From: an uncultured Chloroflexia bacterium
GTDB lineage: Bacteria; Chloroflexota; Dehalococcoidia; DSTF01; JALHUB01
Reading direction: 5' to 3'
Assembly (NCBI GenBank): GCA_963703345.1
Contig: OY969814.1
Span: 896,001 to 960,000 of the forward strand
Length of the DNA stretch: 64,000 nucleotides
The position numbers and the translations under genes are program-made. This document shows, piece by piece, positions 31,590-39,976 of the stretch (position 1 is its first letter; the number at the start of each line of letters is the position of its first letter). Under the pieces are notes generated by a model. It saw nothing but the letters and a program-made list of their open reading frames with translations. It was not told the DNA's origin and made no database searches.

Positions 31590-31913
31590 TTACAGCCTCA
31601 GTTTGCAAGTGATCATGCCGTCCCACTCGCCGACGGGGTGGTCGGAGGTCAGGACGAAGGACTCGGCATCCGGCTTGTAGCGGATGCTGATCTCGCCGGC
31701 AAGCTCCTGCGCCTGCTGGTCGATGACGAAGGTCAGGCCGTCGACCTCTTCGACGAGGTCCGATTCGTGCCCCTCGTCGACGAGCAGACCCAGCGAGGGG
31801 TCGCAGCAGCCGGTGAACTGCAACTCGATGCGGATGGGCTTCTGCGTCCCCGTTTCGGATAGCAGCGATTTCATTGCCGCAGATGCCGCGGGATCTACTT
31901 TGACTATCGCCAT
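31590..31913 (-). CDS. HesB/IscA-like small protein
   Basis: IRIELQFTGCCDPSLGLLVDE..DLVEEVDGLTFVID pattern; C-terminal Cys. Confidence 0.7.
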   Translation of the reverse strand: MAIVKVDPAASAAMKSLLSETGTQKPIRIELQFTGCCDPSLGLLVDEGHESDLVEEVDGLTFVIDQQAQELAGEISIRYKPDAESFVLTSDHPVGEWDGMITCKLRL

Positions 31914-31967
31914 GAAGTTGAGGGGACGGGACAAAACGCCCCGTCTCCGTTCTCCCTTCGAATTCAG

Positions 31968-34631
31968 CTAGTATGCCTGCGTGTAGAGATTCAAGATCTC
32001 TCCCGGGTCGGCGACCGGGCGGGCGTTGAACATCGTGTTCGAATCCGCCAGCGCGTGGAAAGCGCAGAGGCCCAGGCCATCCTGCGGCACGCCGACTTCG
32101 CGTAGCCCCATCGGGTGGCCTACCTTCTTCATCAGCGCCTCCACCGCGTCGGCTGCCGCCAGCGCCGCCTCGCGCTCCTCCATTCCCCTCGTGTCGACGC
32201 CCATGGCCTGCGCGACTTGAGAGAGCTTGTTGGCGGCGTAGTCTACGTTAAAGCGCATCACCTTCGGCAGGACGATGCCGCAGGCCATGCCGTGCGGAAC
32301 GTTGTGCAGCGTCCCCACGGTGTGCGCCATCGCGTGCGCCAGGCCGACCTGAGCGATGGTGAACGACCAGCCGGCGACCGTGGCGGCTATCTGCATGTTC
32401 AGCCGCGCCTTCTCGTTGCTGCCGTCCTCCGCGACGATCGGCAGGTTCTCGTTGATCAGGCGAATCGCATGCAGGGCCAAGCCGTCGCAAATGGGGTTCG
32501 CCATGATGCTCGTCATCGCCTCGACGGCGTGGGTCATCGCGTCCATGGCGCTGCCGACGGTCATGCCCTTGGGCAACGTCATCGTCATGCGCGGATCGAG
32601 GATGGCGACGTTCGGGGATATTCGCGGGTCGGCGATGAAGAGCTTGCGGCCGGCCATCTTGTTGGTGATGACGGCGGCGTTCGTCACTTCGCTGCCGGTG
32701 CCCGCCGTCGTCGGGACGACGATGTGCGGCGTCTGCGGCTCATCGAGCGTCCACCAGCGGTTGATGTAGTCGTTGGCCTTGCCGCCGTTCTTGAGCGTCA
32801 CGCAGACGGCCTTGCCGGCATCGATGACGCTGCCGCCGCCGACGCTGACGATGCAGTCGGCCTGGAGCTGGCGCGCCATCTCCGTCGCGGCGTCAACGCA
32901 CTCAAGATCCGGGTCCTGGGGAATGGCGTCGAACATGCCCACGCAAAAATCGGCGAGGCTGTTCTTCACGAGGTCGGCCAGGCCGGCCTGCCGCACGCCC
33001 GGGTCGGTCAGGACAAGGGCGTGGCGGCCGCCGAGGTCAACCGCCATCTTGCCAATCGAAGACAGGGTACCGTGCCCCGCTATCACCGCCGTCGGGCAGT
33101 TGTAGGCGAAGCCTTCGATCTTCTTGTCGTCCCGCATGATTGTGAACGGGAAGTTCGTCTTGGCGTCCGAGTAGTACGGCACGTGGATGCGCTTGACCTG
33201 CGTGTACTCCTCCAGGCCCCACTTGCCCAGCTCGCGGCCGACGCCCGACTGCTTGTAGCCGCCGAACGGAACGTACTCGGCGAACACGTGGTAGTTGTTG
33301 ATCCACATCGTGCCGGTGCGGACGCCACGCGCCACCTTTTCGGCGCGGGCGATGTTGGTGGAGAAGACACCGCCGGCCAGGCCGTAGATGGAGTCGTTGG
33401 CGATGGCGATCGCCTCTTCGTCACCGTCGTACTTGATGACGCAGACGACGGGGCCGAAGATCTCCTCCTGGGCGATGCGCGTCTTATTGTCGACGTTGGC
33501 GAAGATGGTCGGCTGGTAGTAGTAGCCGCCTTCCATTCCCTGCACCTCGGCGCGCTTGCCGCCGGTAACGACCTGTGCGCCCTCTTCCTTGCCCAACTGG
33601 ACGTAGTGCTCGATAGTAGCCAGTTGTTCTTTGCTGACCACCGGGCCCATATGCGACGTCGGATCGAGCTGATAGCCGATGCGCATCTCTTCGGCGCGCT
33701 TCTTCATCCGCTCGACGAACTCGTCGTGGATCTTGGAAGGAACGAGGACGCGGGTGCCGGACTCGCAGATCTGCCCCTGGTGGAGGAACGTGCCGAAGCA
33801 GGCGCCCTCGACGGCGAGTTCCATGTCGGCGTCGTCGAGGATGATGTTGGCGGACTTGCCGCCGAGCTCCAGGGTCACCTTCTTCACCGTGCCGGACGCC
33901 AGTCGCATGATCTCGCGTCCCACCTCGGTGCTGCCGGTGAAGGCGATCTTGTCGACGGCGGGATGCGTGCAGATTGTGTTGCCCAGCGAGCCGCCGGGCC
34001 CGGGAATGACGTTGAACACGCCGTTAGGGATGCCGGCCGCCTTGGCGCACTCCGCGAGAATAAGAGCTGTCAGCGGCGTATTCGAGGCCGGCTTGATGAC
34101 GATGGTGTTGCCCATGAGCAGGGCCGGCACGATCTTCCACATCGCCAGCGCCGTCGGGAAGTTCCAGGGGACGATCCCGACGCAGACGCCGATGGGCTCG
34201 CGGCGCACGAACTCGCGTCCGGGGGAGAAGGCGTTTCCGGAGGCGAAGACCTCCTCTTCCATGGGGAACTTGGTCAGCGCATAGGTGGCCAGGTTGCGGG
34301 TAAGCAGGCTGGCCCACAGGCTGATGACCTTGGCGTAGTTGATGATCTGACCGGCATCCATGCACTCTGCCAGGACCAGGCGTATGCCCTGCTGCGAGAT
34401 CTGGTCAGCGAAGTCCTGGAGCAGCGCCGCGCGCTTAGTCAGCTCCATGCCGCTCCAGTCGCCCTTGTCGAAGGCGCGCTTGGCCGCGGCAATTGCGGCC
34501 TCGGCGTCAGCAGTTCCGGCCTTGGCGACCCTGGCGAAGGGAAGGCCGGTCCCGGGGTCGATGGTCTCGAAAGTCGCGCCGTCCTGGGCGTCGACAAATT
34601 CACCGTCTATGAACAGTTTGTATTCATCCAT
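31968..34631 (-). CDS. Fusion of NAD(P)-dependent aldehyde dehydrogenase and iron-containing alcohol dehydrogenase
   Basis: PWNFP, FTGSTEVG, ELGGKS, GQICESG, EEIFGPV, FGGYKQSG; then GGGSVID, PTTAGTGSE, DAMTHAVE, HAMAH, PHG; GAGGAG SD. Confidence 0.92.
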   Translation of the reverse strand: MDEYKLFIDGEFVDAQDGATFETIDPGTGLPFARVAKAGTADAEAAIAAAKRAFDKGDWSGMELTKRAALLQDFADQISQQGIRLVLAECMDAGQIINYAKVISLWASLLTRNLATYALTKFPMEEEVFASGNAFSPGREFVRREPIGVCVGIVPWNFPTALAMWKIVPALLMGNTIVIKPASNTPLTALILAECAKAAGIPNGVFNVIPGPGGSLGNTICTHPAVDKIAFTGSTEVGREIMRLASGTVKKVTLELGGKSANIILDDADMELAVEGACFGTFLHQGQICESGTRVLVPSKIHDEFVERMKKRAEEMRIGYQLDPTSHMGPVVSKEQLATIEHYVQLGKEEGAQVVTGGKRAEVQGMEGGYYYQPTIFANVDNKTRIAQEEIFGPVVCVIKYDGDEEAIAIANDSIYGLAGGVFSTNIARAEKVARGVRTGTMWINNYHVFAEYVPFGGYKQSGVGRELGKWGLEEYTQVKRIHVPYYSDAKTNFPFTIMRDDKKIEGFAYNCPTAVIAGHGTLSSIGKMAVDLGGRHALVLTDPGVRQAGLADLVKNSLADFCVGMFDAIPQDPDLECVDAATEMARQLQADCIVSVGGGSVIDAGKAVCVTLKNGGKANDYINRWWTLDEPQTPHIVVPTTAGTGSEVTNAAVITNKMAGRKLFIADPRISPNVAILDPRMTMTLPKGMTVGSAMDAMTHAVEAMTSIMANPICDGLALHAIRLINENLPIVAEDGSNEKARLNMQIAATVAGWSFTIAQVGLAHAMAHTVGTLHNVPHGMACGIVLPKVMRFNVDYAANKLSQVAQAMGVDTRGMEEREAALAAADAVEALMKKVGHPMGLREVGVPQDGLGLCAFHALADSNTMFNARPVADPGEILNLYTQAY

Positions 34632-35058
34632 TTGGAATTCCTCCTCTCGCACTCGTTGGTGCGGGGACTCGTCAGACTTGGCCGTCGAAGAGTCTTTGAG
34701 TGTCTACGATTGCATTCCTCCTTAGCATATCTTGCCGCTTCAAGAGGTAATAGCAGCATATCACCGGCCAATGATGTCGGGAAGAGGCGCGGGCGATGCG
34801 AGGGTGGACGTGAGGAGCAAGGACCTTCTTCTAGCGACGTGGTGTCGGGGCCGTTCGGGTTGCCGAACGGCCCCCACGGCGCGCCCGCTCGCACGCAGTG
34901 CCGTCGTCTCGAACCGTCCATGGCCGACCCACGTCGCGCCCCGACGAGCGATCTGCTGGGGCCGGCATTTTGCCCGGAAAAGAAGGCCATCTTGTCACGA
35001 ATTCCGGTTGCCTTTTTCCCGAGCCCTGTGATACAAAGGCTGAGGGGTTAGTGACAGA

Positions 35059-36021
35059 ATGTACAAATTACAGAAAGCCGACCTGAACAACCTAATAGCA
35101 TCACTGGCCGGACAGTACCACGTCCTCGCTCCCGTACGCACGGACGCGGTACGATTCCAGGAGGTCAAAAGCGCCGATGCGATTGACCTCAGCGGCAACA
35201 CCTATCTACCCATCAAGCAGTTCTTCTTTCCCCAGCAGGAGACCCTGTTCGAGTTCGCGGGCGACAAGATAAACGTGCCGCTGCCGGAGTCGGAGAAGCG
35301 AGTCTTCTTCGGCGTCCGGCGCTGCGACCTCAACGGTGTCGCCCACCAGGACCGCGTCTACCTGGAAGAGCCGCAGAACCCGTACTACGCGGCGCGACGC
35401 AAGAATGCCGTCCTCATCGGCCTTCACTGCGCTCAACCCTGCAACCAGTACGCCTTCTGCGGTAGCATGGACCTCAAGGACCACCATGACCTGTGGATGG
35501 CGGACCGCGGCGACCACTTCCTCGTAGAAGCGGGCAGCGAGGAGGGCGAAAACCTGGCCAAGCAGCTCTCGTCCTACCTCAAGCCGACGGACGAAGGCCC
35601 GGCGGAGCGCACGACTCCCGGCACCGACAAGCTCAAGACCACGAAGATAGCCGCCCTCTACGGCAACCCGGAGTGGGAGAGCGGCGTCAAATGGTGCCTG
35701 AGCTGCGCCGCCTGCACCACCACCTGCCCGACCTGCTACTGCCACGAGATCGCCGACACCGTCGAGTCCTCCGATACGTCGAAGGGGCAACGGGTCCGCA
35801 ACTGGTCGAGCTGCCAGCTCAAGGAGTTCAGCCGCGTCGCCGGCGATCTCTTCTTCCGCGACGCGCGCAGCGAGCGCTTCCGCTTCCGCATCTACCACCA
35901 GATCGAGTACTACCGCGAACGCTACGGCGTGACGATGTGCGTCGGCTGCGGGCGTTGCATCTCCAACTGCCCCACGCGAATCGACTGGGTAAGCATCGTG
36001 AACCGGATGGTGGCGCAATGA
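35059..36021 (+). CDS. hydB: Group 3b hydrogenase beta subunit (AsrA-like, 4Fe-4S)
   Basis: GVRRCD, CLSCAACTTTCPTCYC, CVGCGRCISNCP. Confidence 0.88.
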   Translation: MYKLQKADLNNLIASLAGQYHVLAPVRTDAVRFQEVKSADAIDLSGNTYLPIKQFFFPQQETLFEFAGDKINVPLPESEKRVFFGVRRCDLNGVAHQDRVYLEEPQNPYYAARRKNAVLIGLHCAQPCNQYAFCGSMDLKDHHDLWMADRGDHFLVEAGSEEGENLAKQLSSYLKPTDEGPAERTTPGTDKLKTTKIAALYGNPEWESGVKWCLSCAACTTTCPTCYCHEIADTVESSDTSKGQRVRNWSSCQLKEFSRVAGDLFFRDARSERFRFRIYHQIEYYRERYGVTMCVGCGRCISNCPTRIDWVSIVNRMVAQ

Positions 36022-36818
36022 CAAACACAAACGTTTACCTACCGCAGCCCGTAAAGGTGCTGGAGAACCTGCGTGAGACCAAAGAGAATTTCCGCCTTAT
36101 CCTGGACATACCCTTCGAGAACGACCCCGGCCAGTTCGTCCAGATTTCGCGGCTGGGCATTGGCGAAGCGCCAATCTCCATCGCCTCCTGGCATCGGGAC
36201 TACCTGATGCTCCACATCCGCGAGGTAGGCACCGTCACCCGCGCCCTCGGGCGCTGCGAGCCCGGCGACACGGTCTTCATCCGCGGCCCCTACGGCAAGG
36301 GCTACCCGATGAAAGAGGCGGAGGGCCTCAACATGGTAATCGTGGCCGGCGGCTGCGGCGTCGCCTCCGTGAAGGGTGTCTTCGACTACGTCGAGAAGAA
36401 CCGCGAGAAGTACAACGAGGTCTACGCCTACGTCGGCTACCGCAACTCGAAGGAGGTCATCTTTGAGGACTTCGTCGAGCAATGGAAGAAGGACATGCGC
36501 GTCCTCGTGTCGCTGGACACGCTGAGCGAGGGGACCTGCTTCGACGCCAGCGAGAGCTTCGTCAGCGACCTCGTGAAGGCGACGAACCTGCCGGCAGGCG
36601 ATACGGTCGCCATGCTCTGCGGCCCGCCGATCATGATGAAGCTCTCCGGCCAGGCGCTGCTGGACAAGGGCCTACGCGAAGACCACGTCTACGTGTCCGA
36701 AGAGCGGCTCATGTACTGCGCTACCGGCACCTGCTGTCACTGCATGATCGGCTCCACATTCACCTGCAAAGACGGACCGGTGTTCCGTTGGGACCAACTG
36801 AAGGAGCACACGCCGTGA
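36018..36818 (+). CDS. hydG: Group 3b hydrogenase gamma subunit (FAD/NAD(P), 2Fe-2S; AsrB-like)
   Basis: PGQFVQ..GEAPISI, RGPYGKGY, AGGCG, CGPPIMM, CATGTCCHC..CKDGP; ATGA coupling. Confidence 0.88.
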   Translation: MTNTNVYLPQPVKVLENLRETKENFRLILDIPFENDPGQFVQISRLGIGEAPISIASWHRDYLMLHIREVGTVTRALGRCEPGDTVFIRGPYGKGYPMKEAEGLNMVIVAGGCGVASVKGVFDYVEKNREKYNEVYAYVGYRNSKEVIFEDFVEQWKKDMRVLVSLDTLSEGTCFDASESFVSDLVKATNLPAGDTVAMLCGPPIMMKLSGQALLDKGLREDHVYVSEERLMYCATGTCCHCMIGSTFTCKDGPVFRWDQLKEHTP

Positions 36819-37576
36819 GTGAGAAACTGAAAGTCGGAGTCCTGGACATTACCGGTTGCAACGGTTGCGTGCTCTCCGTTGCTTTCAACGAGGACGAAGT
36901 GCTCGACATCTTCGACCTGGTCGACGTGCTCGAATACCGCTTCGTCTCCGACCCGGCGGAAGAGAAGCCGGAGTTGGACATCGTTCTCCTGGAGGGCATG
37001 GTCGCCTCGGCGCGCGACCTTGAGTTTCTGAAAGACATCCGCGCCCGCACGAAGATCCTCGTTGCCCTCGGCACTTGCGCTCACACCGGCTGTATTCCCG
37101 CCTACAAGAAGTGGGCGCCGAAAGAGAACCTCGCCCGCCTGCAGTTCCCGAAGACCGACGACATCGCCGACGTCGAAGTGACGGCGCAGGACGAGCACGT
37201 CAAGGTCGACGCCGTTATCCCCGGCTGCCCGCCGAACCGACGCGAAGTGCTTGAAGTCATCAAGAACCTCGTCATCGGCAAGGGCTACCGGCCCTACACC
37301 CTGCCCGTCTGCGTCGAATGCCGGCGCAACAACAATCAGTGCCTACTTGAGTCCAACAAGCCTTGCCTCGGCTCGATTACGACCGGCGGCTGCTTTGCCA
37401 TCTGCGTCAACGCCGGCCTCGAGTGCTGGGGTTGCCGTGGCCAGACGGCCGACGCCAACCTCGACGCCTTCATGAAAATGCTCGAGGGCAAGGGCTTTAG
37501 CCGCGACTTTATCCTGGAACGAATGCGCACTTTCGTCGGCCGTAAGATTCCTGCGCTAGAAGCAACAGCGGGGTAA
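36815..37576 (+). CDS. hydD: Group 3b hydrogenase small (delta) subunit
   Basis: TGCNGC, GTCAHTG, PGCPP, VCVEC..C..CLG..C..C..CWGCRG; GTGA coupling. Confidence 0.9.
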   Translation: MSEKLKVGVLDITGCNGCVLSVAFNEDEVLDIFDLVDVLEYRFVSDPAEEKPELDIVLLEGMVASARDLEFLKDIRARTKILVALGTCAHTGCIPAYKKWAPKENLARLQFPKTDDIADVEVTAQDEHVKVDAVIPGCPPNRREVLEVIKNLVIGKGYRPYTLPVCVECRRNNNQCLLESNKPCLGSITTGGCFAICVNAGLECWGCRGQTADANLDAFMKMLEGKGFSRDFILERMRTFVGRKIPALEATAG

Positions 37577-37581
37577 GCCTG

Positions 37582-38859
37582 ATGACGACTACGAACCTGA
37601 CACTGGACGAAATCACCAAGATCGAAGGGCATGCCGTCCTCGAGCTGAAGATCACGGACGGCAAGATCGAGGACTGCCACCTGAGGGACGTCGAGGGCAG
37701 CCGCTACTTCGAGGGGCTGCTCGTCGGCCGCCGCTACGACGAGGCGTACTGGATCTCCAGCCGCATATGAGGCATCTGTAGCTGCGGCCACGTTGTGGCT
37801 GCCGTAACCGCAATGGAGAGCGCGCTGGGCATCGAGCCCAGCCAACAGACGCACGACCTGCGCGTCCTTCTGACGATGGGCGAGCGCATTCGTAGCCATG
37901 CTGCCCACCTCTACTTCCTCGCCCTGCCGGACTACCTGGGCGCGCCCAACGCCGTCGCCATCGCGGCGGACAAGCCGGATGCGGTGAAAATGGCCGTCGC
38001 CCTTATGAAGGCCGGCAATGACATGGTGAGGGTAATCGGCGGACGCGACATGCACCCCGAGTCGGCGACAGTCGGCGGCTGGTTGCACTTCCCGTCGCAG
38101 GAACAGGTTGACGGCCTGCGGGCGCGGCTGGAAGAGCTCCGACCCGGCGCCGTCGCCACCGCTCAGCTATTCAACAGCCTGCCGTACCCGGACTTCCACC
38201 ACGGCGCCGAGCACTTCTCGCTGCACAACGACAAGGAGTACGTCTCCCTGCGGGGCACGATCAAGAGCGCGAATCACGAGTTCGAGCGCCGCGACTACCT
38301 GAAGTTCGTGCAGGAGTACCACGAGCCGGACATGACCGCCAACTTCGTGGTCCGCGAAGGCCACGCGTACATGGTCGGCGCGCTTCCGCGCATCAACAAT
38401 AACTTCGACCAGCTTTCGCCGGAAGCCAAGCAACTGGCGAAGGCCGGAAAGCTGATGGACAATCTGGACAACCCGTACTACAACAACGTCGCCCAGGCCG
38501 TGGAGCTCGTCGCCGCTGTGGACCAGGCGATCGAGATGCTGGGTAGGGTCAAGCCGCGCCCCGAGCCGCTGATGGAGATCAAACCGCACGCCTGCCGGGG
38601 CGTTGGGACCGTCGAGGTGCCGCGCGGCACGCTCTGGCACGAATACGAGCTGGACGATACCGGCCACGTGAAGCACGCCAACATCATCACGCCGACGGCC
38701 CAGAACCTGCGCAGCATCGAAGACGACATCCGCCAGTTCCTGCCGGCGATAGTGCACCTGTCGCGCGGGCAAATGGCGGACGCGCTGGAGAAGCTCATTC
38801 GCTCCTATGACCCCTGCCTCTCCTGCGCCGCTCACTTCCTGCGCATCGAAGACATCTAG
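37582..38859 (+). CDS. hydA: Group 3b [NiFe(Se)] hydrogenase large subunit, read through the in-frame TGA at 37768-37770 as probable selenocysteine
   Basis: ORFs 37582-37770 and 37795-38859 share a frame; joined they give TKIEGH, R-I-(TGA)-G-I-C-S-C-G-H (L1), EVPRGTLWH and YDPCLSCAAH (L2) plus a cleavable tail. Confidence 0.88.
37784..37802 (+). promoter_or_regulatory. Candidate bacterial SECIS element of hydA
   Basis: Stem GCGGCCAC/GTGGCTGC (8 bp, one G-U); apical loop GUU with 21 nt between it and the TGA. Confidence 0.7.
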
Positions 38860-38918: not shown

Positions 38919-38940
38919 CCGTCGCGTATGATTGACAGCG

Positions 38941-39569
38941 ATGCCGGAAGAGAAGCGCCTGTCCGCTATCATCCTCGTCGGCGGCCTCAGCCGGCGCCTG
39001 GGAGGAAACAAGGCGTCGGAGGTCGTCGGCGGGCGATCTCTCCTGCAGCACGTCGTTGACGCCGTGTCGCCGCTTGCGGGCGAGATCGTCGTCGTCGGCG
39101 CGCGCGGCGGTCCGTTTCCCGAAGTGGAGTCGGTCTTGCCGGTTCGCAGGGTCGAAGACGTGCGCGAACGAGCGGGCGCGCTCGGCGGGCTGTACACCGG
39201 CCTGCTTGCCGCCGAACACAGCGAAGCCGCCGCCCTCGCTGCGACATGCCTCTGCTCTCTCTGCCGCTCTTGCGCCACCTTCGCGGCCTGCTGACCGACG
39301 AGTGGGACGTGGTGATGCCGCTTTGGCACGGTCGCGAGGAGCCGCTGCACTCCTTCTACCGACGCACCTGCGTCCCGGCTATCGAGCGACTGCTCGACCG
39401 CGGCGGCCGGCGCTTCGTCGATTTCCTGCCAGAGGTGCGCGTGCGCTACGTTTCCGAGGAAGAAGTAAAGCGATTCGATCCGGAAGGGCGGAGCTTCTGG
39501 AACGTCAACAACGAAGACGACCTGCGGCGGCTGCGCCCCCTTCTGGAGAGCAAGAGCCGAGGCGGCTAG
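38941..39569 (+). CDS. mobA: MobA-like molybdenum cofactor guanylyltransferase; 1-nt deletion near 39240
   Basis: IILVGGLSRRLGGNKA, GALGGLYTGL, CDMP restored across the frameshift, EPLHSFY, FWNVN. Confidence 0.8.
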
Positions 39570-39976
39570 TCTGGCGTCGCCCCGTTGCGCCGCGAGTGCA
39601 TTCTGTCCGGCAGGCCCGTTAGCAACCGCAACAACTGCTCTCGCACGACATCGACGCCGACGCCCATGGGCAGCGCGATAACCGGCACGCTGACGCCGTA
39701 GAGCTTCTGGACGACCTTCAGGAAGACGGCGGGGTCGAGATCGTGCGCGGTGACGCGCGGCGGCGGCAGAAAGCGCTCCGGCTCCGTGATCAGGGTCACT
39801 TCGCCCACGCCTTCCGCCACATCCATCACGTACAGATCTTCCTCCAGATACTCAATCATCTCCTCCGGTGAAGAGCTCGTGATGAACGTGACCCCCGGGA
39901 CCTCGAGCGAAAGGCCCAGCTCCACCGCCACCGAGTCTTCGGGAATAGCGCGGTTGCCGAAACAGAGAACAATCAT
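39566..39976 (-). CDS. Divergent, short hydrogenase maturation endopeptidase (HycI/HybD-like)
   Basis: VLCFGN..PEDS, VMDV and TAHD match the GN..D(D/E), DA and (S/T)xH pattern; close to hydA, which has a C-terminal extension. Confidence 0.6.
   Translation of the reverse strand: MIVLCFGNRAIPEDSVAVELGLSLEVPGVTFITSSSPEEMIEYLEEDLYVMDVAEGVGEVTLITEPERFLPPPRVTAHDLDPAVFLKVVQKLYGVSVPVIALPMGVGVDVVREQLLRLLTGLPDRMHSRRNGATPD

Follow-up and report, generated by a model that had tools for sequence, protein, structure and literature searches.

The locus and its reading frame

The gene hydA, which encodes the large subunit of a [NiFe] hydrogenase, lies on the forward strand at positions 37582 to 38859 of a 64,000-nucleotide stretch of DNA (the window; G000:C1:896001-960000) from an uncultured bacterium of the Dehalococcoidia, whose genome, G000, holds the window on one 2.28-Mb contig. 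Its frame runs from an ATG at 37582 to a TAG at 38859 and contains a single in-frame TGA (37768-37770, codon 63), which falls on the first cysteine (Cys) of the N-terminal ligand motif RxCxxC (L1), a residue that serves as a terminal ligand of the active-site nickel. This UGA is very probably read as selenocysteine (Sec), in the context SRI-U-GICSCGH, and the product would then have 425 amino acids. Past the TGA the frame stays open to the C-terminal ligand motif (L2) DPCLSCAAH and a final FLRIEDI, and the C-terminus reads DPCLSCAAHFLRIEDI. Translation table 11 cuts the gene in two, into products of 62 (37582-37770) and 354 amino acids (37795-38859). A hairpin, GCGGCCAC-GTT-GTGGCTGC, occupies 37784-37802, with its GTT loop (37792-37794) 21 nt after the TGA. 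An earlier inspection of the window (the sequence-only reading) had described the TGA at this Cys, the frame intact as far as DPCLSCAAH, and the position and spacing of the hairpin, and in all of these it proved accurate. The features of the locus are:

35059-36021 (+): hydB-like beta subunit (AsrA/ShyB/HydB-like, 4Fe-4S dicluster; NCBIfam TIGR02910, NF040829, NF040833; PF17179), syntenic in relatives.
36018-36818 (+): hydG-like gamma subunit, an NAD(P)-binding flavoprotein with a 2Fe-2S motif (TIGR02911, NF040835; PF00175, PF10418).
36815-37576 (+): hydD-like delta (small) subunit without in-frame stop (NF040831, NF040836; PF01058).
37582-38859 (+): hydA, predicted group 3b [NiFe(Se)] large subunit, with E15 and R348, predicted U63 and C66 in L1, C412, C415 and H418 in L2, and a 7-residue C-terminal tail.
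37765-37767 (+): rare isoleucine (Ile) codon ATA immediately 5' of the UGA, invariant in TGA forms.
37768-37770 (+): in-frame TGA at the first Cys of RxCxxC, predicted Sec63 and terminal Ni ligand, aligned with the first Cys of RICSFC in the alpha subunit of Pyrococcus furiosus soluble hydrogenase I (SHI).
37786-37800 (+): core, GGCCAC-GTT-GTGGCT, of a hairpin resembling a selenocysteine insertion sequence (SECIS); 8 bp over 37784-37802 in G000, the loop at 37792-37794 beginning with G.
38809-38835 (+): L2 motif DPCLSCAAH, both ligands Cys, without the canonical C-terminal Sec.
39566-39976 (-): candidate divergent hydrogenase maturation protease of 136 amino acids with a predicted HycI/HybD fold, assigned by fold match and synteny.

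Recurrence of the TGA in genomes and metagenomes

The TGA is present at the same column in five of the nine genomes of the genus (G000, G003, G005, G006 and G008). The four TGA genomes other than G000 are 86-88% identical to the window, and the TGC genomes G001, G002 and G004 are 73-75% identical; the ninth, G007, is unscored because its contig ends before the motif. All the more distant orthologues examined have Cys. A scan of metagenomes with the pattern R-I-UGA-G-[IV]-C-x-x-[GA]-H returned 92 loci, of which nine are hydrogenases with TGA, all from this clade; the remaining 83 are not hydrogenases, and three of these gave only chance BLAST matches of 11-29 residues. Genomes and metagenome contigs together yield 12 distinct TGA sequences, at 68-91% nucleotide identity. 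L124 and L136 were left out of this count, being identical over the overlap to L091 and L017 respectively; L124 was also too short for the first tree, and L140 and L028 were left out of alignment A4. Another two contigs, both from other runs, span the codon and agree with it. The exact patterns used in the scans miss other motif spellings, and runs with a small share of these sequences are uninformative on habitat. The sequence-only reading was to fail if every close homologue had Cys, none had TGA and the hairpin was not conserved; homologues with the TGA exist, both in genomes of the genus and on metagenome contigs.

The sequence-only reading expected pipelines to call such a gene a pseudogene; what the protein collection holds of these genes is fragments only, of 61-62 and 343-348 amino acids. 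With the N-terminal piece as query, all 18 clusters recovered end exactly at ...RI, and one such fragment is named 'hypothetical protein' in GenBank. Among the best 120 homologues, 107 have the L1 motif, with Cys at position 63, and the other 13 are pieces of 343-348 amino acids that begin after the motif; 12 of these were put on the tree, where all fall among the TGA forms, and the thirteenth is the window's own. The stop codon itself is confirmed in those loci for which nucleotide sequence was at hand. Across 401 genomes of the class, 40 have a 3b-like match and an L1 TGA occurs only in G000, G006 and G008; the other nine 3b-like matches containing a stop are natural ends directly after the L2 histidine. 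The pattern gave only two other hits in a set of 401 Chloroflexota genomes, both in stop-rich frames. A group 3b lineage that ends at the L2 histidine, without C-terminal extension, was seen in nine genomes of one genus and in G336 (L144, L145, L147, L150, L153-L158).

Selection on the UGA context and the hairpin

Taken by itself, the hairpin of the window is ordinary in folding energy: z is -0.58 over the first 45 nt beyond the UGA and -0.01 over 53 nt, and only a hand-picked 21-mer reaches -3.78. Energy alone was rejected as evidence, not being significant over windows of 45-53 nt, and a loose SECIS filter was dropped because 3,681 of 12,393 TGAs pass it. A hairpin with a GU loop at a suitable distance follows 632 of 55,104 TGA triplets (1.1%, six frames), compared with 43 of 3,651 Cys codons. 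When the TGAs of G000 that have such hairpins are ranked by coding potential on both sides, the UGA of hydA comes first and that of selD, with a similar stem and a GUC loop, second. Since the energy is unremarkable, the case rests on comparison between sequences, and there the hairpin rises above chance because all 12 distinct TGA sequences retain GGCCACGTTGTGGC.

All 12 TGA forms read CGC ATA TGA GGN and then GGC CAC GTT GTG GCY. An invariant codon is found in 7 of the 83 fourfold-degenerate columns with an invariant residue; three of the seven are G69, V71 and V72, and the GTT of V71 is their sole A/T-ending codon (GTT makes up 47 of the 351 valine (Val) codons in these genes). The four windows of lowest synonymous divergence, out of 356, start at residues 69, 60, 68 and 61, which places them on the hairpin and the UGA context; their proportion of synonymous differences (pS) is 0.11-0.14 against a median of 0.48. 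In the Cys forms the windows starting at 60, 61, 68 and 69 rank 51, 63, 254 and 169, with pS of 0.42-0.61. The G of the loop coincides with a change from threonine (Thr) to Val at position 71, where all 12 TGA forms have Val, and eight of the nine Cys forms have Thr and one has Cys. A GUU-loop hairpin is present in 12/12 TGA forms and 0/9 Cys forms; beyond the codon, a hairpin forms with a probability of 0.86-0.99 in 11 of the 12 TGA forms and of at most 0.08 in eight of the nine Cys forms, and the stem is paired in 100% of 66 cells in the former versus 67% of 54 in the latter. Variation of the stem within the TGA forms is limited to one G-C/G-U change, five of the six pairs being invariant, and invariant pairs say nothing for or against pairing. 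The sequence-only reading had looked for a conserved hairpin that covaries: its conservation with the TGA holds in 12/12, whereas covariation was not seen, the stem being frozen. A further helix around the UGA, proposed upstream by RNAalifold, was discounted, as it rests on third-position C/T changes, which are nearly the only ones that the code permits there. Downstream of the UGA the protein is under purifying selection, with a ratio of nonsynonymous to synonymous rates (dN/dS) of 0.13 for residues 64-425 over 36 pairs.

The codon before the UGA is ATA in all 12 TGA forms and in one of nine Cys forms, and ATA makes up 29 of the 230 Ile codons in these genes. Two reasons for it were tried and rejected: hairpin stability (mean probability 0.77, 0.72 and 0.81 for the three Ile codons) and a conserved open reading frame (ORF) in the -1 frame, which is not conserved. 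The other Sec genes of G000 do not share ATA before their UGA. Six A/T-ending codons near the TGA had been singled out from the window alone; ATA and GTT are kept in 12/12 each, and the other four dissolve on comparison, TGT being found in 8 of the 12 TGA forms (and in 7 of 9 Cys orthologues), GTA in 7, GCT in 4 and GCA in 3. Besides V71, no residue adjacent to L1 or L2 separates Sec from Cys forms in the sequence alignment.

Selenocysteine machinery

As the sequence-only reading anticipated, G000 possesses selA, selB, selC and selD. The profile scores of selA (561.9 bits), selB (357.3) and selD (353.9) are all above cut-off, and selD has its own TGA. The sole tRNA of G000 with a UCA anticodon is 98 nt long and ends in GCCA, with a G discriminator; a relaxed ARAGORN scan of the genome gave no credible extra UCA or GCA tRNA. 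Takano et al. (2026; PMC13582414) take a G discriminator as the mark of tRNA-Sec and a U as that of tRNA-ReC, and by these criteria the tRNA is tRNA-Sec. All five TGA genomes have selA, selB, selD and tRNA-Sec. The Cys-type genomes keep Sec genes too, so the machinery does not discriminate between the two forms.

Other predicted selenoprotein genes of G000 were noted in passing. Two MerB-like paralogues (L208:221-1189 (-) and L209:240-965 (-)) have two in-frame UGAs each (GQ-U-GF and S-U-S), and no fewer than three of these four UGAs are followed by a GGUC-loop hairpin. Further candidates are FtrB-like (CH-U; L207:118-585 (+)), SelW/Rdx-like (CxxU; L210:206-478 (-)) and PrdB-like (UxxC; L211:210-1088 (-)).

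A large subunit of group 3b

The sequence-only reading had called the enzyme group 3b, and this assignment is supported by profile scores, sequence and fold matches to the Protein Data Bank (PDB) and the operon. Read through the UGA, HydA scores 260 and 253 bits with the profiles of sulfhydrogenase alpha (HydA/ShyA), compared with 157 for VhuA and 141 for FrhA, and it stays below the NCBIfam equivalog cut-offs (259.8 versus 880 bits). The top four PDB sequence matches are SHI alpha or Thermococcales-type cytosolic alpha subunits, P. furiosus SHI alpha being matched at E 3e-71. SHI alpha also provides the closest folds to the HydA model (mean predicted local distance difference test score, pLDDT, 84.6), with template modelling (TM) scores of 0.89-0.90 at about 32% identity, and residue 63 aligns to the first Cys of its RICSFC motif. 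E15, R61, position 63, C66, R348, C412, C415 and H418 are invariant across 27 aligned rows, U being counted as C; the set covers both ligand motifs, the proton-relay Glu and the canopy Arg, in alignment with SHI. L2 reads DPC(L/I)SC, with Cys ligands, in all 10 TGA forms for which the contig extends to the C-terminus; the hallmark of canonical [NiFeSe] enzymes, a Sec in place of the first Cys of DPxxxC, is thus lacking in 10/10 assessable forms.

The operon has four subunits in SHI order (FeS beta, flavin/NAD(P) gamma, small delta, large alpha), and no membrane or antiporter subunits typical of Group 4 were called beside it. The enzyme is likely to be soluble and NAD(P)-linked. Internal stops are absent from the beta, gamma and delta matches of the 22 loci examined, and 16 of these loci have a match to the HycI-like gene next to the operon. 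The protein encoded at 39566-39976 gave no match in Pfam, NCBIfam or PDB sequence and profile searches; the best fold match of its model is Thermococcus kodakarensis HycI (5ZBY, E 3.4e-4), and ranks 1, 2 and 4-7 are maturation proteases. The accessory genes hypA, hypC, hypD, hypE and hypF were found in G000. A scan for promoters and terminators gave results at chance level only.

Two neighbours flank these genes. Downstream, mobA (38932-39569, +) is broken in two near 39243, where it lacks one nucleotide that G001 has, and several relatives have no mobA at this spot. Upstream and divergent lies a fused aldehyde/Fe-alcohol dehydrogenase with a HesB-like gene (31590-34652, -); the dehydrogenase adjoins the operon in three related loci and is a plausible NAD(P)H partner of the hydrogenase.

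Evolution and probable exchange of Sec and Cys alleles

On the tree the TGA clade lies inside a set of group 3b genes of the Cys type, which belong to the same family and order. Its next-closest relatives are proteins named as Woesearchaeota or Nanoarchaeota (P0039-P0121), at 50-56% identity and with a RICGICSCAH motif that has an extra Cys, and other 3b genes of the Dehalococcoidia are more distant (35-41%), which hints at a transfer of this 3b lineage between archaea and bacteria. Masking the motif columns gives a tree in which L119, a partial TGA sequence of 216 amino acids, falls outside a group of 11 TGA and four Cys forms. Monophyly of the Sec forms was rejected (approximately unbiased (AU) test, p = 0.007, with L119 at only 216 amino acids). 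One gain followed by a loss is nevertheless the simpler reading, because L119 has exactly the same codons, and from these sequences we infer a single gain of Sec that was later lost.

Trees of the gamma and delta subunits intermix Sec and Cys genomes. In most windows flanking hydA, identity between G001 (Cys) and L056 (Sec) is 97-100%, with an identical gamma subunit, compared with 69-85% inside hydA; likewise, G002 (Cys) and G003 (Sec) are 93-98% identical in most beta-gamma windows versus 63-93% across delta-alpha. Near-identical flanks around a divergent hydA suggest that entire alleles, Sec and Cys, have been swapped at this locus on two or more occasions, by recombination of the whole gene within the genus, the remaining alternative being chimeric assembly. 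The direction of these swaps was probably Cys replacing Sec.

A different Sec position was observed in large subunits of group 3c (MvhA/VhuA-like), which have an N-terminal RICGV-UGA (CxxU, the bridging ligand) with a hairpin-forming sequence after each. Such genes occur in G005 (L217:874-1704, G005:C178) and at 10 places in 8 of the 401 class genomes, 85 of which have a match (L219, L228, L231, L234-L240). All 11 are CxxU, and their C-terminal motif has Cys in the 10 of 10 where it is on the contig. G005 therefore has a gene of each kind, UxxC in group 3b and CxxU in group 3c.

Probable decoding of the UGA and possible purpose of selenium

Given the frozen synonymous sites, the purifying selection and the conservation, there is very little room for a nonsense lesion or a split gene, and recoding as Sec is likely; we hold with considerable confidence that the UGA of this group 3b hydA is read as Sec, placing selenium at the N-terminal terminal Ni ligand. 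Several observations weigh against that reading. The codon is not covered by the genome's own reads, and near-identical contigs of X1, the best DNA run, stop short of it. In the G000 sequence, folding only what lies downstream gives the hairpin a probability of 0.41, against 0.96 if upstream context is included, none of the six stem pairs shows two-sided compensatory changes, one Cys form (L024) folds a hairpin at 0.99 without the loop G, and the filter for GU-loop hairpins was devised after the hairpins of hydA and selD had been seen. Sec genes are also present in the Cys-type genomes of the genus. Finally, no canonical hypB scores above cut-off in G000 or in five of five relatives (0/6 over G000, G002, G003, G006, G008 and G010, which are 90-97% complete, with only a weak GTPase match), the Cys-type genomes likewise being without it.

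The gap in the genome's own reads, together with errors or lesions nearby such as the 1-nt deletion of mobA relative to G001, would suit a nonsense mutation, a pseudogene or an assembly error. The same TGA in 12 distinct sequences from separate assemblies, with two more contigs in agreement, the dN/dS of 0.13 beyond it, and a synonymous freezing of the hairpin that a dead gene would not retain render such an origin scarcely credible. A true division into two polypeptides, of 62 amino acids and a re-initiated piece of 348-354, is just as hard to sustain: gene callers do output these two products, and ATA-TGA creates an ATGA overlap in 12/12, but such a division would cost the protein both Ni ligands of its N-terminal motif, conservation extends over the codons (G-I-C-S-C-G-H) that separate the UGA from the following start, and the -1-frame ORF opened by the ATG of ATGA, with 4, 22 or 42 codons, is not conserved. 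A slightly larger, still slim, chance attaches to recoding through the SECIS with cysteine, by a tRNA of the ReC or SelC* type, which would leave an ordinary [NiFe] enzyme whose translation is gated. Takano et al. name tRNA-ReC, where present, as a limit of calls made on sequence only (PMC13582414), and all other homologues examined have Cys here (the 107 of the best 120 with the L1 motif). Set against this are the single UCA tRNA, of 98 nt and with a G discriminator, the lack of any credible extra UCA or GCA tRNA, and intact selA and selD.

If Sec is inserted, SelB with Sec-tRNA(Sec) would bind the GUU loop and recode the UGA. As this step needs Sec, HydA would reach its full length only in cells supplied with selenium. 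The HycI-like neighbour may remove the 7-residue C-terminal tail, giving a predicted active site of Ni(Sec63, Cys412 terminal; Cys66, Cys415 bridging)-Fe(CN)2CO, in which the presumed proton-relay ligand Cys412, next to Glu15, would remain sulfur; in Escherichia coli hydrogenase 1 (Hyd-1) the C-terminal terminal ligand is tied to proton transfer with a conserved Glu. We take Cys75 of the Desulfovibrio vulgaris [NiFeSe] enzyme to be the equivalent first N-terminal ligand. In that enzyme the O2 path converges near Cys75, which was found oxidised, and sulfinates occur at non-Sec cysteines (PMC7324405), while model chemistry favours the reversal of over-oxidation for selenium over sulfur (PMC8161538). 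Together these findings suggest that selenium may protect this ligand, and by analogy it is possible, if doubtful, that Sec63 shields an oxidation-prone terminal ligand whose damage becomes easier to repair. Equally tentative is the view that selenium at the N-terminal ligand is a selected second design that arose once, in a 3b lineage of the Dehalococcoidia, and is balanced with Cys alleles, entire genes being traded back and forth with the selenium or oxidant regime.

Differing in purpose only is the proposal that Sec is inserted but near-neutral, or merely gates expression by selenium, with no new catalytic design. We give this not quite an even chance, and consider it at least as likely as protection. 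Both kinds of allele, Sec and Cys, are found within one genus and take over from each other at the same locus, a Sec allele having apparently been replaced by Cys alleles at least twice; Cys-type genomes retain Sec genes; and V71 is the only residue neighbouring L1 or L2 that distinguishes the two forms in the alignment. The engineered C76U variant of Hyd-1 speaks the same way, as it has 3% of native activity, keeps only 5% of its activity when O2 is injected, and is less O2-tolerant than the native enzyme rather than more so (PMC8020662). Yet the UGA and its frozen hairpin have been kept in 12 sequences at 68-91% nucleotide identity, at the cost of a Thr-to-Val change and of dependence on selenium.

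Comparison with known selenium hydrogenases

The sequence-only reading knew natural [NiFeSe] enzymes with Sec in the C-terminal motif only, a premise that has been overtaken: Takano et al. (2026; PMC13582414) describe Group 4 enzymes whose N-terminal motif is UXXC, CXXU or UXXU, with UXXC termed previously unrecognised. Their 47 Group 4 sequences with N-terminal Sec include four with UXXC, in Group 4e; the first N-terminal Cys is described there as binding Ni terminally. That survey left out Groups 1-3, and it cites Baltazar (2011) for N-terminal CXXU exceptions in Groups 1 and 3. In Table 1 of HydDB, [NiFeSe] variants are entered for 1a, 3a and 3c but not for 3b (PMC5037454), and the proteins named in a 2026 review of selenoproteomes include FrhA, FrhD, MvhA/VhuA/VhuU and MvhD/VhuD (PMC13188914). 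We found no report of a group 3b selenoenzyme in searches of an open-access library, and met no characterised natural enzyme with Sec at the first N-terminal ligand in the portions of the literature examined. The N-terminal UxxC ligand position is thus already known in silico, and its occurrence in group 3b appears to be unreported.

The canonical [NiFeSe] enzymes (HysA of D. vulgaris and Desulfomicrobium baculatum, group 1a; Vhu and Fru of Methanococcus, groups 3c and 3a) have in common with the predicted HydA a Sec that is a terminal Ni ligand; theirs stands in a C-terminal UxxC, whereas here that motif is DPCLSC, with Cys. The N-terminal CXXU variants of Groups 1 and 3 have Sec at the second, bridging Cys, and here it would be at the first. 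P. furiosus SHI (group 3b; PDB 9NEZ, 9NF0, 9E15) is built from the same four subunit families in the same order and has Cys at all four ligands, compared with a predicted Sec at the first N-terminal one in HydA.

At the equivalent first N-terminal ligand, Sec has been introduced artificially, into group 1 scaffolds: Hyd-1 C76U and the Cys61-to-Sec variant of Hyd-2 of E. coli mature and oxidise H2 (Evans, 2021, PMC8020662; Evans, 2024, PMC11212049). Those studies regard only the C-terminal terminal position as special for selenium (PMC8020662, PMC11212049); nature would here have kept Sec at the very terminal ligand that engineering work judged not special. If the protective role is true, HydA would be a natural, soluble, NAD(P)-linked [NiFeSe] enzyme that guards an oxidation-prone ligand and keeps its proton-relay ligand as sulfur.

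Among the closest counterparts is the UXXC of Group 4e in Desulfobacterota. Both have a UGA at the first N-terminal Cys, a predicted non-bridging Ni ligand, and in both the apical-loop G of the SECIS is the first base of a Val codon; both are known in silico only. The nesting of hydA among Cys-type 3b relatives suggests an origin independent of Group 4e. The published natural UXXC enzymes are four sequences from multi-subunit, membrane-bound energy-converting complexes, whereas the predicted enzyme of the Dehalococcoidia is a four-subunit (beta-gamma-delta-alpha), cytoplasmic 3b hydrogenase like SHI. Its UGA-containing genes are present in the protein collection only as two fragments, a gap in annotation, and since natural Sec and Cys alleles occur in near-identical operons (L056 and G001), the role of selenium at this ligand is directly testable.

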